A DNA stretch of 64,000 nt. Source: Escherichia coli (GTDB taxonomy: Bacteria; Pseudomonadota; Gammaproteobacteria; Enterobacterales; Enterobacteriaceae). The position numbers and the translations under genes are program-made. Where the stretch lies: NCBI RefSeq assembly GCF_044324875.1, contig NZ_CP172185.1; one strand, written 5' to 3'. Positions 6,555-36,444 of the stretch are shown here, piece after piece. The first letter of the stretch is position 1; each line of letters starts with the position of its first letter. The notes beneath the pieces are model-generated. The model made no database searches. It worked only from the letters and a program-made list of their open reading frames with translations, and was not told the DNA's origin.

Positions 6555-7916
6555 TTACTTCTCCAGTTGGCGTAATATCTTATTAACTTTATCAAAAGTT
6601 TCCTGATATTCCGCTTCTTCCTGGCTATCGGCGACAATTCCACCGCCCGCAGAGCAGTATATTTGTCCGTTAATGGCAGTCAGAGTGCGGATAGTAATGC
6701 TGGTATCCATGTTGCCGCAAAAGCTCAAATAGCCAATGCTGCCGCACCAGGCATTGCGTCGCTGCGGTTCCAGTTCGTCGATAATTTCCATAGCCCGTAC
6801 TTTCGGAGCCCCGGTTATTGAGCCACCAGGAAAAGCTGCGCGCAGCAGATCGCTGGTGTGTAACTGTTCTGGTAGCCGCGCCGTTATGGTGCTGACCAGA
6901 TGATGCACGGCAGGGAAAGGTTCGACCACGAACAGCTCTGGTACTTTTACCGAACCGGCTACGGCAACGCGACCGATATCATTACGCATTAAATCGACAA
7001 TCATCAGATTTTCAGCGCGATCTTTGGGGGAGTTCGCCAGTTTCTCTGCTTGTTTGCTATCTTCCTGAGGATCGGGCAGGCGTGGTAGCGTGCCTTTAAT
7101 CGGGCGGGTCTGGATTTCACTATTATCACAAAGGATAAACCGCTCTGGCGAAAGGCTTAAAATCGCGCCCTGTTCAAGGCGTAAAAAAGCGCTAAACGGC
7201 GCGCGGTTGGCCTGATTAAGCTGAAGGAATGCCTGCCATTCATCGCCAGAATAGGCCGCTTGAAAACGCTGGGCGAGATTCACCTGATAGCAATCACCAC
7301 TGTGCAGATATTCCTGTACCTGGCGAAATTTTTCGCCGTACTGCTCGCGGGTCATATTGGATTGCCAGTCGGAAGTGAGCGCGAAATCTTCCTGAGGGGA
7401 GAATTGCTGGCTTTCCAGCCAGGCCAGACGGGTATTGACATCATTATGACTCAGCAAAGAAACTGTTTGACGCTGGTGGTCAACAACCAGCGCCCAGTCG
7501 TAGATACCCACTGCCATATCAGGCAGAACGATATCTTGCTGCGCAATTTCTGGCAGTGACTCAAAACGGCGGCCCAGATCGTAGCCAAACAACCCCAGTG
7601 CGCCGCCCTGAAATGGCAAATCTTCGTTATGCGTTGGGCGAATGTCTGCGCGATCCAGCACCTGCTGGAGCACCTGTAGCGGGTCATCAGTGGTCGTTGT
7701 GCGTTTTTCGCTTTCACTAACAACGGTTTCTTTACCGAAAGTGGTTAAAGTGCAAATCGGCTCGGCGACCACAATATCAAAGCGGCTATATGGATGATCG
7801 GCATAGCCGGAGTGTAAAAGCATCGCCCACGGCAGGTGGCTTAAGCGGGAGAAATAAAATTCAGCGGCGTCCTGACGCCAGGGTAAAGTAATCACAGCGG
7901 GAGATAACGTCTTCAT
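6555..7916 (-). CDS. pabB: Aminodeoxychorismate synthase component I
   Basis: 453-aa ORF with chorismate-binding enzyme motifs (SPERF, GSITGAPK). Confidence 0.93.
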   Translation of the reverse strand: MKTLSPAVITLPWRQDAAEFYFSRLSHLPWAMLLHSGYADHPYSRFDIVVAEPICTLTTFGKETVVSESEKRTTTTDDPLQVLQQVLDRADIRPTHNEDLPFQGGALGLFGYDLGRRFESLPEIAQQDIVLPDMAVGIYDWALVVDHQRQTVSLLSHNDVNTRLAWLESQQFSPQEDFALTSDWQSNMTREQYGEKFRQVQEYLHSGDCYQVNLAQRFQAAYSGDEWQAFLQLNQANRAPFSAFLRLEQGAILSLSPERFILCDNSEIQTRPIKGTLPRLPDPQEDSKQAEKLANSPKDRAENLMIVDLMRNDIGRVAVAGSVKVPELFVVEPFPAVHHLVSTITARLPEQLHTSDLLRAAFPGGSITGAPKVRAMEIIDELEPQRRNAWCGSIGYLSFCGNMDTSITIRTLTAINGQIYCSAGGGIVADSQEEAEYQETFDKVNKILRQLEK

Positions 7917-7989
7917 CAGTCCTGACTCTACTGGCTATGTGCCGGGTAGCATGAAATAATTAGCGCCAACAATTTAGCAGGAGTTAACA

Positions 7990-8169
7990 ATGTTTGCAGG
8001 TTTACCTTCACTCACCCATGAACAGCAGCAAAAAGCCGTCGAGCGGATCCAGGAACTGATGGCACAAGGGATGAGCAGCGGCCAGGCAATCGCGTTGGTG
8101 GCAGAAGAGCTGCGTGCCAACCATTCCGGCGAGCGAATCGTGGCGCGTTTTGAGGATGAAGACGAGTAA
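7990..8169 (+). CDS. yoaH: UPF0181 small protein YoaH (59 aa)
   Basis: ATG at 7990 preceded by AGGAG; translation [59 protein letters not shown]; below the 60-aa cutoff of the ORF track. Confidence 0.8.
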
Positions 8170-8288
8170 CACACTAACCCGTATCGCTTTCGTTATACAA
8201 GCCGATGGTTATTTGATTGTGAGAAAAAGGACGCTTTTCATATGTGATTAAAAGCGTCCTGACCCATTTATGCTGATGTAAATTTTAC

Positions 8289-8588
8289 TCAGACCAGTGC
8301 TTTTAGTTCTTCCTGCATATATGTTGAAAAGTATTCAGGATTTTTAATCACAGAGCGTTCACCAGACTCCATTTTTTTTGCCCATCCAACCATTTTTTCC
8401 GTGAATCCAGGGTTCCAGCCTTCCTGGTCAGCTCGCGCCGTAATATCAGCGGCACTCGCGGGTACTCCCAGTTCTTTTAAATATTTAAAGATTCCCTTCG
8501 CCGTGCTTTCATTCATCGAACTTGGTGTTGGCGCTGATACATCCATGGCACCAATGAAATCCAGGGCTTTATCTATTACAGCAGGCAT
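8289..8588 (-). CDS. yoaC: DUF1889 family protein YoaC
   Basis: ORF 8289-8648; start placed at internal Met (MPAVIDKALDF...) to give 99 aa as recalled for K-12; the upstream Met at 8648 is an alternative. Confidence 0.75.
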   Translation of the reverse strand: MPAVIDKALDFIGAMDVSAPTPSSMNESTAKGIFKYLKELGVPASAADITARADQEGWNPGFTEKMVGWAKKMESGERSVIKNPEYFSTYMQEELKALV

Positions 8589-9009
8589 ATTCTTATCCTT
8601 AAATTTAACCATGTTATCGATAAGGCTATATATGACCTTAATTTGCATCTAATATCAAAGGGATTATAACGATATGGCACGAGTTAACCTGTTGACATTC
8701 AGGTGTTTTAAAGGTAGCAGCTCATGGTGTGTTATCCAGTAAGAGGGAGAAAATTAACGGTCAGTCCGCACGCTATAACCAGATTGTTCAGCTAAGAAAG
8801 AAAACCAGAGTTGCTAATCAAAGGGCGAACACAACGGCATGGTTATGTTTATTTATATAGCTAGTTTTATAGATGAAATTGAAATTATAAAAATAAATAA
8901 TGAATTAGCAGGAGCATCAACAGTAATAACTTAATCTCTGGTCGATTTATGTAAAACCGACCAGTATTATCGATAAATTATCGTCTGACTTATTTTGCTT
9001 CGATAAAGC

Positions 9010-9354
9010 TTACACCGCAGCCACAATCTTAATTTCAACTTTATACTTCGGGTTCATCAAACCCGCTTGTACCGTGCAGCGCACCGGCGCATGACCCGCG
9101 ACAACCCAGGCATCCCACGCTTTATTCATCGCCGCGAAGTCGTTTTTATCGGCCAGGAAAATGGTGGCATCCAGAATGCTCGATTTATTGCTGCCCTGTT
9201 TTTCCAGCACGGCGTCAATCTGCGCCAGCGTGTTGGCAGTTTGCTCGAAAGCATCGGCGTCGAGGTTTTCCGGTACACCAGTGTAGTAGAGCGTGTTGTT
9301 GTGGATCACCACATCAGACCAGCGGGCTTCAGCATCGATACGAACGATAGTCAT
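9010..9354 (-). CDS. yoaB: RidA/YjgF-family protein YoaB
   Basis: ORF 9010-9402; start placed at MTIVRIDAEARW... to give 114 aa. Confidence 0.85.
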   Translation of the reverse strand: MTIVRIDAEARWSDVVIHNNTLYYTGVPENLDADAFEQTANTLAQIDAVLEKQGSNKSSILDATIFLADKNDFAAMNKAWDAWVVAGHAPVRCTVQAGLMNPKYKVEIKIVAAV

Positions 9355-9485
9355 CATTTTGTCCTCATTATACTTCCATTTTCGTGCTGCAAAGACTGCC
9401 ACAATGTGAGGTCGCCGTCATCACTTCAACTGGCGAAAGCGCCCTCATCCTGACATAATCCCTGTTCAAATCAACAGGGGGTAGT

Positions 9486-11396
9486 GTGACGGACGATTTT
9501 GCACCAGACGGTCAGCTGGCGAAAGCGATACCAGGCTTTAAGCCGCGAGAACCACAGCGACAGATGGCGGTAGCCGTCACCCAGGCGATAGAAAAAGGCC
9601 AGCCGCTGGTGGTGGAAGCCGGAACCGGTACGGGCAAAACCTACGCTTACCTGGCCCCTGCGCTGCGGGCGAAAAAGAAAGTTATTATCTCGACCGGTTC
9701 AAAAGCGTTGCAGGATCAGCTCTACAGCCGCGATTTGCCAACAGTCTCAAAGGCATTGAAATATACGGGCAACGTGGCGCTGCTGAAAGGGCGCTCAAAC
9801 TACCTCTGCCTCGAGCGTCTCGAACAGCAGGCGCTGGCGGGGGGCGATCTGCCGGTACAAATCTTAAGCGATGTGATCCTGCTGCGCTCCTGGTCTAATC
9901 AAACAGTCGATGGTGATATCAGCACCTGCGTCAGCGTGGCGGAAGATTCACAGGCGTGGCCGCTGGTCACCAGCACCAACGACAACTGTCTTGGCAGCGA
10001 CTGCCCGATGTATAAAGATTGCTTTGTGGTCAAAGCACGCAAAAAAGCGATGGACGCCGATGTGGTGGTGGTAAACCATCATCTCTTTCTGGCGGATATG
10101 GTGGTGAAAGAGAGTGGATTTGGCGAACTGATCCCGGAAGCTGACGTGATGATCTTCGACGAAGCCCACCAACTGCCCGACATTGCCAGCCAGTATTTTG
10201 GTCAGTCACTCTCCAGTCGACAACTGCTCGACCTGGCAAAAGACATCACCATCGCCTATCGCACCGAATTAAAAGATACTCAGCAGTTACAAAAGTGCGC
10301 CGACCGCCTTGCCCAGAGCGCGCAGGATTTTCGTCTGCAACTCGGTGAGCCTGGTTATCGTGGCAACCTGCGCGAACTGTTAGCTAATCCGCAAATTCAA
10401 CGGGCGTTTTTACTGCTCGATGACACCCTGGAACTTTGTTATGACGTGGCGAAACTGTCGCTGGGGCGTTCCGCCTTGCTGGATGCGGCATTTGAGCGCG
10501 CCACGTTGTATCGTACGCGGCTGAAACGGCTAAAAGAGATCAATCAGCCGGGCTACAGCTACTGGTACGAATGCACTTCGCGCCATTTTACTCTGGCACT
10601 CACGCCGCTCAGCGTGGCGGATAAATTCAAAGAGTTAATGGCGCAAAAGCCAGGTAGCTGGATTTTTACCTCGGCAACGCTGTCGGTGAATGACGATCTG
10701 CATCATTTCACCTCGCGGCTTGGCATTGAACAGGCAGAGTCGTTGCTGTTACCCAGCCCGTTTGATTACAGCCGCCAGGCGTTACTCTGTGTGCCGCGCA
10801 ACCTGCCGCAAACCAATCAACCGGGCTCCGCAAGGCAACTGGCGGCAATGTTGCGACCGATCATCGAGGCTAACAACGGTCGTTGTTTTATGCTTTGTAC
10901 CTCGCACGCCATGATGCGCGATCTGGCCGAGCAGTTCCGCGCTACCATGACGCTTCCCGTTTTGTTGCAGGGAGAAACCAGCAAAGGGCAACTGTTGCAG
11001 CAATTTGTCAGCGCCGGTAACGCGCTTCTTGTGGCAACCAGTAGTTTCTGGGAGGGGGTGGACGTGCGTGGCGATACATTGTCATTGGTGATTATCGACA
11101 AGTTGCCGTTTACCTCACCGGATGATCCACTATTAAAAGCGCGCATGGAAGATTGCCGTTTGCGTGGTGGTGACCCGTTCGATGAAGTACAGCTGCCGGA
11201 TGCGGTGATTACTCTCAAGCAGGGAGTAGGGCGACTGATTCGCGACGCCGACGATCGCGGCGTGCTGGTGATTTGCGATAATCGGCTGGTGATGCGCCCT
11301 TACGGCGCGACGTTTCTCGCCAGTCTGCCGCCAGCGCCGCGCACCCGTGACATTGCCCGTGCGGTTCGTTTCCTTGCGATACCATCCTCCAGGTAA
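9486..11396 (+). CDS. yoaA: DinG-family ATP-dependent DNA helicase YoaA
   Basis: 636-aa ORF with GTG start; Walker A (AGTGTGKT), DEAH-like box (FDEAHQL) and Fe-S cysteine cluster visible. Confidence 0.9.
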   Translation: MTDDFAPDGQLAKAIPGFKPREPQRQMAVAVTQAIEKGQPLVVEAGTGTGKTYAYLAPALRAKKKVIISTGSKALQDQLYSRDLPTVSKALKYTGNVALLKGRSNYLCLERLEQQALAGGDLPVQILSDVILLRSWSNQTVDGDISTCVSVAEDSQAWPLVTSTNDNCLGSDCPMYKDCFVVKARKKAMDADVVVVNHHLFLADMVVKESGFGELIPEADVMIFDEAHQLPDIASQYFGQSLSSRQLLDLAKDITIAYRTELKDTQQLQKCADRLAQSAQDFRLQLGEPGYRGNLRELLANPQIQRAFLLLDDTLELCYDVAKLSLGRSALLDAAFERATLYRTRLKRLKEINQPGYSYWYECTSRHFTLALTPLSVADKFKELMAQKPGSWIFTSATLSVNDDLHHFTSRLGIEQAESLLLPSPFDYSRQALLCVPRNLPQTNQPGSARQLAAMLRPIIEANNGRCFMLCTSHAMMRDLAEQFRATMTLPVLLQGETSKGQLLQQFVSAGNALLVATSSFWEGVDVRGDTLSLVIIDKLPFTSPDDPLLKARMEDCRLRGGDPFDEVQLPDAVITLKQGVGRLIRDADDRGVLVICDNRLVMRPYGATFLASLPPAPRTRDIARAVRFLAIPSSR

Positions 11397-33526: not shown

Positions 33527-35002
33527 TTAAATATGATGAATAATCACTTTGTTGCCCCCCTCGCTTTTCGCTTCGCGTAAGGCTTTATCTGCTTCCGTCA
33601 TGACAAGCGAGATATTACGTGTGTCACCCGTTGAAAAAACCGTGCCAATACTGATGGTCATTTGCTCAGGAACATCATATCTGTTACTAAAGCCGGTCAG
33701 GAGTTCGACATTTTTACGCATACGTTCCGCAATGATTTTTGCCTGGGCACTATTCAGTTCGGTAAATAGCAAGCCAAACACCTCACCCTCCAGTCGCGCT
33801 AAAATATCATCGGGGCGGATGCTTTGCTGGATAATATCGACAATTGAAACCAGCACTTTATCACCCACACGATGTCCCCATTGGGCATTGATGCGTTTGA
33901 ACTGATTAATATCAACCAGCATGACACAGAAGTCCTTAACAACAGGTCGCGACAATAATGACTCTACGCTGTTGAAAAAGTAGCGCCGATTATAAATATT
34001 GGTCAGCACATCATGAACTGCCAGTTTGCTGGAGAGTTGCAGTTCCTGAAAAATGTTATAAATCAGAAAAGACACAACAAACAGTTTACTGGAGACTTCA
34101 ATCCCGCGACTGATATACCAGATGGTGTAATTATACTCATCCAGAGTTAGTAGAAGTAAGTTGCAGCATAGCGATGCCAGACATAATAATGCTATTAACG
34201 GCCATAGTTCGCTGGCTAATCGTGTACGCATGATAATAAAGAACAGTAAAAATGCCCACAGACAAACCAATATTTTTGTATAGTTGATTCCCCAGGTCGC
34301 AGTATGGTTGTCCGGACAGTAATCGACGACATACAAAGAATAGTCAGCGTTATAACTGCTCAGATTGTGTGCCAGAAGGGGAAAAACTAAAAAAGGAATC
34401 AGCGCCAGTAACAGAATGCCAGTTTTTTTCTTATTGTTGTCAAGGATGTTGTCTTTCCCATAACAAAAGAGCGCCAGCGAGGTTAAACAAATGAAACTGA
34501 GTTGGCGGAAAATATAGAAAATAGAAACATCATTCGACTTTGTCTGGATCAGTGTACTGCCGTTGATTGGTTTATGGATAATTACAATGGTTTCAACTAA
34601 ATAGATAAGGCCACTTAAAAATGCAAGGCTTAAAATGAGTGTTGGTAAAATTTGTTTGTTAGTGAAATACTTCATTAACATGAAAAGAAAAATGACGGCG
34701 TTAAGGAAAAACAAAGCCACAACAACCATCAGGTAATTCATCTGTGGGATGAGTTTTACATTCGTGTTTTCGTTATATAAGGTAGTAATGCAAAATAAAA
34801 TTAACGTCAGCAATAAGCTGAAAATAAAAAAGCCTTGAGCTTTTAATTTTTGTGTACCCATAGAAGCCATAAAAAGGAGAGCAATGTGAGTGCTGGATTT
34901 TATTGATGGCAGAGATATATAGTTTTGACCAGGATCAATTTTCGTTAACGATAAAAAATATTTAAAGAATAACCCCAGGGAAACACGTGTTGACCGAATC
35001 AT
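33527..35002 (-). CDS. dgcI: GGDEF-domain membrane protein DgcI (YeaI) with degenerate active-site motif EGEVF
   Basis: 491-aa ORF, multiple TM segments, C-terminal GGDEF domain with EGEVF in place of GG(D/E)EF (ARLEGEVFGLLF); very AT-rich coding sequence. Confidence 0.88.
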   Translation of the reverse strand: MIRSTRVSLGLFFKYFLSLTKIDPGQNYISLPSIKSSTHIALLFMASMGTQKLKAQGFFIFSLLLTLILFCITTLYNENTNVKLIPQMNYLMVVVALFFLNAVIFLFMLMKYFTNKQILPTLILSLAFLSGLIYLVETIVIIHKPINGSTLIQTKSNDVSIFYIFRQLSFICLTSLALFCYGKDNILDNNKKKTGILLLALIPFLVFPLLAHNLSSYNADYSLYVVDYCPDNHTATWGINYTKILVCLWAFLLFFIIMRTRLASELWPLIALLCLASLCCNLLLLTLDEYNYTIWYISRGIEVSSKLFVVSFLIYNIFQELQLSSKLAVHDVLTNIYNRRYFFNSVESLLSRPVVKDFCVMLVDINQFKRINAQWGHRVGDKVLVSIVDIIQQSIRPDDILARLEGEVFGLLFTELNSAQAKIIAERMRKNVELLTGFSNRYDVPEQMTISIGTVFSTGDTRNISLVMTEADKALREAKSEGGNKVIIHHI

Positions 35003-35148
35003 TTTTCCGAATGATTGTTTTCTGGAACTAAATTGTGTAAAGGTTATGCTGTCATATTTAAAGCGATTGTAAGCTAATGTATGTAATAAATGAGATAATT
35101 TACAGTGAGCTAAAAATCAGCCAGGCGATAATGACCCGGCTGATAGTT

Positions 35149-36444
<1,296 letters not shown>

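Follow-up and report, generated by a model that had tools for sequence, protein, structure and literature searches.

The spacer between yoaB and yoaC most probably serves for regulation and insulation within an 840-bp segment of low GC content that also carries yoaC, a reading to which we give a probability of about 0.8. Three parts can be distinguished within the spacer: the end of the yoaB transcript, a stretch of filler, and a conserved promoter for yoaC. The region is otherwise ordinary, and published genome-scale datasets already showed its pieces; beyond annotation, its significance is small. It does illustrate the fitting of one acquired gene, whose function is unknown, into a core locus. 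Coordinates refer to the window, which is the whole 64-kb stretch of E. coli DNA that was analyzed. The locus is laid out as follows:

7990-8169, plus strand: yoaH, which flanks the segment, with pabB on the same side and yoaA on the opposite side.

8170-9009, 840 bp: Escherichia-specific segment between the stop codons of yoaH and yoaB, holding yoaC, its promoter, the AT-rich spacer and a hairpin.

8289-8588, minus strand: yoaC coding sequence (DUF1889, 99 aa; RefSeq annotation), with a start codon and Shine-Dalgarno sequence kept across genera.

9010-9354, minus strand: yoaB coding sequence (RidA family; RefSeq annotation of identical loci and the list of open reading frames), the neighbor upstream of the spacer.

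The original prediction had described an AT-rich spacer at 8650-9010, with yoaC beginning at ATG 8648, the start of a 119-codon open reading frame. This boundary is wrong: the yoaC start codon is ATG 8588 in all RefSeq records examined (13 E. coli loci, K-12 and CFT073 among them), and other Escherichia species do not conserve the codon at 8648. With the boundary corrected, the spacer spans 8589-9009 (421 bp, GC 0.337). Of 5426 complete E. coli genomes, 5411 contain it, with identities of 95.7-99.3%. Comparison with K-12 detects no indels in the spacer, and window position x thus corresponds to MG1655 coordinate 1893711 + (9010 - x).

The marked AT-richness attributed to 8650-9010 was borne out. 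Its GC content is 0.346, compared with 0.447 in yoaC, 0.525 in yoaB and 0.499 in the window as a whole; only 0.8% of 361-bp intervals across the 64 kb have a GC content as low or lower. When AT-rich tracts of the window are ranked, the spacer comes second, behind 34262-35361. The A/T tract quoted as an example lies at 8877-8905.

Why the spacer is AT-rich becomes clear when the locus is compared with those of other genera, which were retrieved through their YoaH proteins. In Salmonella enterica, Citrobacter farmeri, Klebsiella and Enterobacter, the convergent genes yoaH and yoaB have stop codons that lie 0-7 bp apart. The spacer is AT-rich because it belongs to 840 bp of acquired DNA that is missing in these four genera. 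The whole segment has a GC content of 0.382, compared with 0.52-0.56 in the surrounding genes. Absence from the syntenic site in related genera, together with deviant composition, is what is expected of a horizontally acquired islet. We therefore read presence, absence and composition as indicating that an ancestor of Escherichia acquired the segment, probably by a horizontal route, at the precise point where the stop codons of the convergent genes yoaH and yoaB meet. In the literature consulted we did not meet the point that the spacer and yoaC together make up an 840-bp Escherichia-specific insertion between convergent stops, an ordinary type of event.

The segment carries no signature of mobility: neither an integrase nor a phage or plasmid relative was found, and the repeats at its ends are short and at chance level. 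An origin from a phage or plasmid was considered and discarded, as there were no phage matches and the plasmid matches turned out to be mislabelled chromosomes or, in Klebsiella, the yoaC coding sequence alone. Homologues of yoaC are present at unrelated loci in Buttiauxella (where the gene adjoins fis-dusB), Citrobacter and Lelliottia, yet about 100 bp of homologous upstream sequence are retained. We take this sharing of upstream sequence at unrelated loci to show that yoaC moves as an itinerant unit of one gene, along with its own leader and core promoter. The insert provides yoaC with a portable promoter and leader, yoaB with a new transcript end, and two resident LysR-type regulators with binding sites.

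Evidence that the spacer contains the yoaC promoter, as first proposed, comes from its yoaC-proximal part, where the following features are found:

8589-8656, minus strand: inferred yoaC 5' UTR of about 67 nt, which includes the conserved GGTTAAWTTTAAGGATAAGA and the Shine-Dalgarno sequence AAGGA (8600-8596).

8663-8668, minus strand: predicted yoaC -10 hexamer, a perfect TATAAT located 75 nt upstream of the ATG.

8683-8720, minus strand: conserved upstream box, CTGCTACCTTTAAAACACCTGAATGTCAACAGGTTAAC, which hardly varies among 13 E. coli genomes or across 6 of the 7 Escherichia lineages aligned.

The TATAAT hexamer is invariant across Escherichia, with the exception of GATAAT in E. whittamii. 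Judging from the position of this -10, yoaC transcription would begin near 8656; the promoter is placed on the basis of sequence and conservation. No hexamer close to TTGACA is found 16-18 bp upstream of the -10, the best match being 2 of 6. Because the -35 matches the consensus at 2 of 6 positions or fewer, a consensus scan missed this -10-only promoter and reported a single weak promoter-like site on the plus strand. A perfect -10 without a -35 is typical of activator-dependent promoters, and the conserved upstream box spans roughly -28 to -65 relative to the predicted start.

Downstream of the promoter, the AAGGA Shine-Dalgarno sequence lies 7 nt upstream of ATG 8588, and the leader is conserved in Buttiauxella, Citrobacter and Lelliottia even though yoaC occupies other loci in those genera. 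Conserved structure was not detected in the 5' UTR (consensus fold, -0.99 kcal/mol; zero covariation). The proximal 130 bp or so probably act as the yoaC promoter followed by an unstructured leader with a strong Shine-Dalgarno sequence. Published transcriptomes agree with separate transcription of the two genes: in a compendium of 3,376 RNA-seq sets, the probability of co-transcription of yoaB and yoaC is 0.175 (PMC10392735). Altogether, the near-invariant TATAAT block, the low probability of co-transcription and the published binding of YhaJ and YeiE described below support the existence of a yoaC promoter in the spacer, and transcription of yoaC from its own activator-dependent promoter is the most likely scenario. 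As for the gene itself, deletion of yoaC causes sensitivity to boric acid (PMC11502571).

Two LysR-type regulators occupy the region in vivo. ChIP-exo in K-12 finds YeiE bound upstream of RNA polymerase at yoaC, a gene chosen in that study to exemplify the upstream mode of binding, the one that more commonly activates the target (PMC6237786). ChIP-seq peaks of YhaJ at yoaC have been reported in EHEC (p = 8e-26 and 1.7e-99) and in UPEC (PMC6765310). When mapped from CFT073 coordinates, the centers of the YhaJ peaks fall at 8948 and 8930 of the window, at the hairpin; the yoaC start codon follows 340-360 bp further downstream. The motif published for this locus is found elsewhere:

8867-8882, plus strand: T-N11-A motif of YhaJ predicted by MEME, TTATAGATAAAATTGA in K-12, CFT073 and EHEC (PMC6765310, Tables S3 and S4).

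In the window, the ninth base of this motif is G. The motif lies 65-66 bp from the ChIP peak centers and has two mismatches to TCAA-N5-TTGA, which is no better than chance. A perfect copy of the YhaJ box, TCA-N7-TGA within T-N11-A, is absent from the spacer, and sites with two mismatches occur 4 times, compared with 3.5 expected by chance. A candidate LysR-type site, TTA-N7-TGA, is found at 8711-8699, inside the conserved upstream box. The corresponding TTAAAACACCTGAATG (8711-8696) has the T-N11-A geometry, and 13 of its 16 positions are identical to TCAAAATTCCTGAATG, the published autoregulatory motif of yhaJ (PMC6765310). Another candidate, TCAACAGTA at 8917-8925, shares 9 nt with the YhaJ motif of ybiJ; it was dropped because it is not conserved in CFT073. 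The YhaJ peak centers are distant from the conserved box near the promoter, and none of the spacer sequences fits the YhaJ box better than chance.

The probable picture is that LysR-type activators contact the conserved upstream box, with YeiE probably activating yoaC and YhaJ binding the spacer; any pairing of the box with a particular regulator would be inferential. The yoaC promoter resembles LysR-activated sigma-70 promoters such as the YhaJ targets yqjF, ybiJ and yhaK in its strong -10, its weak or absent -35, its conserved T-N11-A upstream box and its published in vivo occupancy by YhaJ and YeiE. It differs from those YhaJ targets, however, in that the spacer lacks a good TCA-N7-TGA box, the ChIP center sits about 350 bp ahead of the start codon and not near -65, and no regulator gene is divergently encoded beside yoaC.

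Conservation varies sharply along the spacer. Nucleotide diversity (pi) was calculated in 13 diverse E. coli genomes, and changes between species were examined in an alignment of seven Escherichia lineages:

9009-8934, yoaB 3' UTR with the hairpin: pi 0.026; between species, the hairpin is kept, with compensatory changes.

8933-8722, fast-evolving AT-rich core, which includes the published YhaJ motif and whose minus-strand RNA has more C than G: pi 0.050; between species, large indels, with spacer lengths of 271-470 bp.

8721-8657, proximal promoter: pi 0.007; almost no change between species.

8656-8589, yoaC 5' UTR: pi 0.015; almost no change between species.

Flanking coding sequences: pi 0.015-0.017 in the 13 E. 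coli genomes.

By this measure, the core changes about three times as fast as the flanking coding sequences, and large indels in the Escherichia alignment are restricted to it. In Escherichia sp. MOD1-EC7003, about 150 bp of the core are gone while yoaC and its promoter are kept. Across Escherichia, the hairpin and the yoaC-proximal block are conserved, and the AT-rich core is not. The core is best understood as filler of foreign composition under weak constraint, with possible binding of nucleoid and regulatory proteins in addition; the YhaJ peak centers are located at its edge nearest yoaB.

At the other end of the spacer, the yoaB transcript comes to its end. The relevant features are:

8934-9009, minus strand: yoaB 3' UTR of 76 nt, ending at an RNA 3' end mapped by Term-seq.

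8938-8964, minus strand: stem-loop capping the yoaB transcript, with an 11-bp stem and without a U-tract (supported by folding and by covariation in Escherichia).

8702, minus strand: peak of a published region of Rho-dependent termination (MG1655 1894019(+), Rho score 3.15, p = 2.4e-6), coarse as it was scored in 800-nt windows.

A short hairpin had been noticed in the original prediction. The structure exists and is bigger than first described, with arms at 8938-8948 and 8954-8964 separated by a loop of 5 nt. It lies approximately 45-57 nt past the yoaB stop codon and is kept in every Escherichia lineage. The 88-nt minus-strand segment that holds it (8925-9012) folds with -21.8 kcal/mol (z = -4.8 relative to shuffled sequences). 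Across eight Escherichia variants, pairing is preserved in 93% of cells, compared with 17-48% in slid controls. Two base pairs have changed on both sides (G-C to A-U and U-A to C-G), and the variation found within E. coli sits in the loop. Several G-U pairs are valid on the minus strand only; therefore, the constraint looks to act on the yoaB transcript. With a sample of eight sequences, this covariation supports a conserved RNA structure in a supportive, not conclusive, manner.

Since the stem is followed by AGAGAUUAAGUUAUU and not by a U-tract, the hairpin is not a classical intrinsic terminator, and the promoter and terminator consensus scan reported no terminator there. An RNA 3' end was detected by Term-seq at MG1655 1893787(+) under three growth conditions (Adams et al. 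2021; PMC7815308). This end maps to 8934 on the minus strand, 4 nt past the stem, and was classed as 'orphan' because it lies 76 nt beyond yoaB. The preferred reading is that a yoaB 3' UTR of 76 nt ends there. A Rho region sensitive to bicyclomycin, with its peak at 1894019(+), was also listed in that study (PMC7815308). In agreement with a Rho-dependent region, the minus-strand RNA from 8920 to 8650 has a C/G ratio of 1.2-2.5, with C exceeding G as in rut regions.

The model that most probably accounts for these observations is the following. RNA polymerase leaving yoaB would cross the hairpin (8964-8938), which has no U-tract, and Rho would halt transcription in the C-rich, G-poor RNA downstream of it, before the yoaC promoter. 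Exonucleases would then trim the RNA back to the hairpin, leaving the stable end at 8934; the trimming step is our inference. If Rho acts downstream of the yoaB hairpin in this manner, little yoaB transcription should reach yoaC. The arrangement is reminiscent of Rho terminators whose transcripts are trimmed back to a stem-loop: a stable hairpin without a U-tract, a 3' end a few nucleotides later, and a C-over-G, bicyclomycin-sensitive region downstream. It differs in that trimming is presumed here and the Rho signal is modest (3.15) and coarse. An additional caveat is that the 800-nt windows used for the Rho score include yoaC, and the score could reflect transcription of yoaC induced by bicyclomycin and not read-through from yoaB.

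A reproducible 'orphan' end at a hairpin, seen in three conditions, admits another explanation: the RNA might be a small RNA, derived from the 3' UTR or independent, with a regulatory role of its own. Conservation within Escherichia of the hairpin and the 30 nt that precede it, with compensatory changes, would fit such a role. We consider it improbable, however. No Rfam family matches, and a permissive scan of 7800-9800 returned only chance-level matches to streptococcal and eukaryotic families. The hairpin lacks a U-tract that might serve for Hfq binding or intrinsic termination, the element is missing outside Escherichia in the four genera compared, and the 3' end lies just 76 nt past the yoaB stop codon, as in a plain 3' UTR. 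Moreover, no novel transcript at the spacer coordinates appears among the RNA-seq compendium entries listed. Neither a described family nor a conserved sequence or structure with its own start and terminator was thus found, the single structured element being the hairpin that begins 46 nt past the yoaB stop codon. The suggestion that the spacer holds an unannotated small RNA is left without support, given that the AT-rich core evolves fast and is partly deleted in one Escherichia species and that the 8934 end is accounted for by the yoaB 3' UTR.

The idea of an unannotated small protein fares even worse. The absence of open reading frames of 60 codons or more in 8650-9010 was confirmed, and the longest internal ones have 43 codons (8729-8860, plus strand) and 31 codons (8839-8934, plus strand). 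Both are present in the window, yet they are broken in 4 of 13 and 6 of 13 E. coli genomes, respectively, and K-12 is among those that break the 31-codon frame; overall, each small frame of the AT-rich core is broken in 2-6 of the 13 genomes. The region cannot be aligned in frame across Escherichia species. Furthermore, both frames are on the plus strand, where the Term-seq tables showed no RNA 3' end within the spacer, and none of 40 E. coli records has a RefSeq feature inside the spacer, among the matches listed. A small protein is therefore a very remote prospect, close to refuted. A caution for genome scans follows: here, DNA that is AT-rich and devoid of open reading frames is acquired regulatory DNA and not a hidden gene. 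Two points can be carried over to annotation, namely that yoaC starts at ATG 8588 and not at 8648, and that yoaB has a 3' UTR of 76 nt that extends to a conserved hairpin.

Binding of H-NS to the spacer, also proposed at the outset, is plausible from the sequence. The following site is found next to the hairpin:

8970-8979, plus strand: exact match to the high-affinity H-NS motif, TCGATAAATT, overlapping the palindrome TTATCGATAA (8967-8976) and adjoining the hairpin.

The motif derives from the published tCGATAAATT (PMC2094087). Searched as TCGWTWAATT, it has its sole match in the 64 kb at 8970-8979; 0.72 matches are expected by chance, and at least one was found in 54 of 100 shuffled sequences. 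The spacer combines AT-rich DNA (GC 0.30-0.35) with a high-affinity motif whose occurrence is compatible with chance.

Rho signals revealed by bicyclomycin often coincide with H-NS-bound DNA. One may conceive that an H-NS filament nucleated by the AT-rich core and TCGATAAATT represses yoaC as an acquired gene, and that YhaJ, YeiE or both serve chiefly as counter-silencers. We regard this as a possible reading of the sequence, with the odds somewhat against it. A GC content of 0.30-0.35 in acquired DNA, an exact consensus with no other match in the window, the presence of a Rho/bicyclomycin signal, and YhaJ peak centers (8930-8948) that adjoin the H-NS site and not the promoter all speak for silencing. 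So does the fast evolution of the core, as H-NS-bound intergenic regions are known to evolve faster (PMC4720273). On the other hand, one motif match per 64 kb is what chance would give, the AT-rich tract is short (about 250 bp), and in one Escherichia species yoaC and its promoter persist although most of the core is lost. The spacer does not figure among the 703 intergenic regions of Higashi 2016, among the matches listed. In its low GC content, its presence in a single genus, its location between core genes, its fast-evolving intergenic DNA and its H-NS consensus, the segment resembles acquired AT-rich islets silenced by H-NS; it differs from them in being only 840 bp long, with one gene and neither mobility genes nor repeats, and in that H-NS binding is putative.

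A more elaborate speculation, which we consider unlikely, is that the spacer works as a far-upstream switch: H-NS would nucleate by the yoaB stop codon, spread over the core and silence yoaC, and YhaJ, bound some 350 bp upstream, would relieve silencing upon exposure to quinone-like compounds. Such a switch would consist of the H-NS consensus (8970-8979), the DNA of the hairpin and the YhaJ peak (8930-8948), an assignment that we hold to be just as doubtful. In a weaker variant, the conserved, hairpin-ended yoaB 3' UTR might also be a trans-acting RNA. If the switch existed, it would exemplify, in compact form, how a core LysR regulator can bring an orphan acquired gene under control. The palindrome TTATCGATAA that overlaps the H-NS motif was found twice in the repeat search of the 840-bp insert.

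Judged from locus comparison, positions 8170-9009 of the window are an 840-bp insertion that holds the whole yoaC unit and fits precisely between the stop codons of the convergent genes yoaH and yoaB. The unit is made of the following parts:
8170-9009: terminator, yoaC gene, promoter, AT-rich spacer and hairpin
The gap between the yoaH and yoaB stop codons is 0-7 bp in Salmonella, Citrobacter farmeri, Klebsiella and Enterobacter. A search of the insertion for terminal repeats, an integrase and phage or plasmid relatives found no signature of mobility.

Homologues of yoaC are also found in Buttiauxella, Citrobacter and Lelliottia (loci L008-L021), where they occupy unrelated neighbourhoods: the Buttiauxella gene adjoins fis-dusB, and the Citrobacter gene comes after a gene of ~628 aa. 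In these three genera ~100 bp of the leader and promoter remain homologous, including an invariant GGTTAA..TTAAGGA..AGA..ATGCC that surrounds the yoaC start. The conservation extends past the Shine-Dalgarno sequence and might mark a site of translational control.

The yoaC frame stays open for 20 codons 5' of the annotated start (8586-8648), giving a 119-codon ORF if translation began at ATG 8648. Because that codon is not kept in other Escherichia species and would be separated by only ~8 nt from the point where yoaC transcription is predicted to begin, the 99-aa annotation looks right.

The spacer between yoaB and yoaC is wholly absent from 15 of the 5426 complete E. coli genomes, and a few others match only a small fraction of the query (coverage of 12% and 19% in matches H30 and H70 of the spacer-region search). 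Therefore, yoaC and its spacer are occasionally deleted or interrupted in E. coli. In Escherichia sp. MOD1-EC7003 the spacer is only 271 bp long (L003:2729-3000, the yoaC locus of this strain). Around 150 bp of the AT-rich core are missing, the published YhaJ motif included, and the upstream box has diverged; the TATAAT and the leader are retained, as is the hairpin, whose stem carries compensatory changes.

At the opposite end of the unit, the gap between the convergent genes yoaH and yoaC contains a strong inverted repeat, AGGACGCTTTTCAT / ATTAAAAGCGTCCT (8228-8260). This repeat is a bidirectional terminator, because published Term-seq 3' ends map there on both strands (MG1655 positions 1894498, plus strand, and 1894457, minus strand; PMC7815308). 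At its 3' end, the yoaH transcript reaches antisense into the end of yoaC.

The spacer is bracketed by two copies, 353 bp apart, of a perfect 10-bp palindrome, TTATCGATAA, a pairing to be read with the caveat that short repeats in two copies frequently arise by chance:
8614-8623: first copy, inside the yoaC 5' UTR
8967-8976: second copy, immediately ahead of the yoaB hairpin and overlapping the H-NS consensus

The AT-richest stretch of the window lies elsewhere, at 34262-35361, with GC as low as 0.31. It spans most of an ORF for a 491-aa membrane GGDEF-like protein (33527-35002, minus strand) as well as the gap separating it from its neighbour. The ORF occupies the yeaI position, and the neighbouring gene is presumably yeaH. 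In a published table of H-NS-related intergenic regions (PMC4720273 S3 Table), a column of unchecked meaning carries a TRUE flag for the yeaH-yeaI intergenic region.
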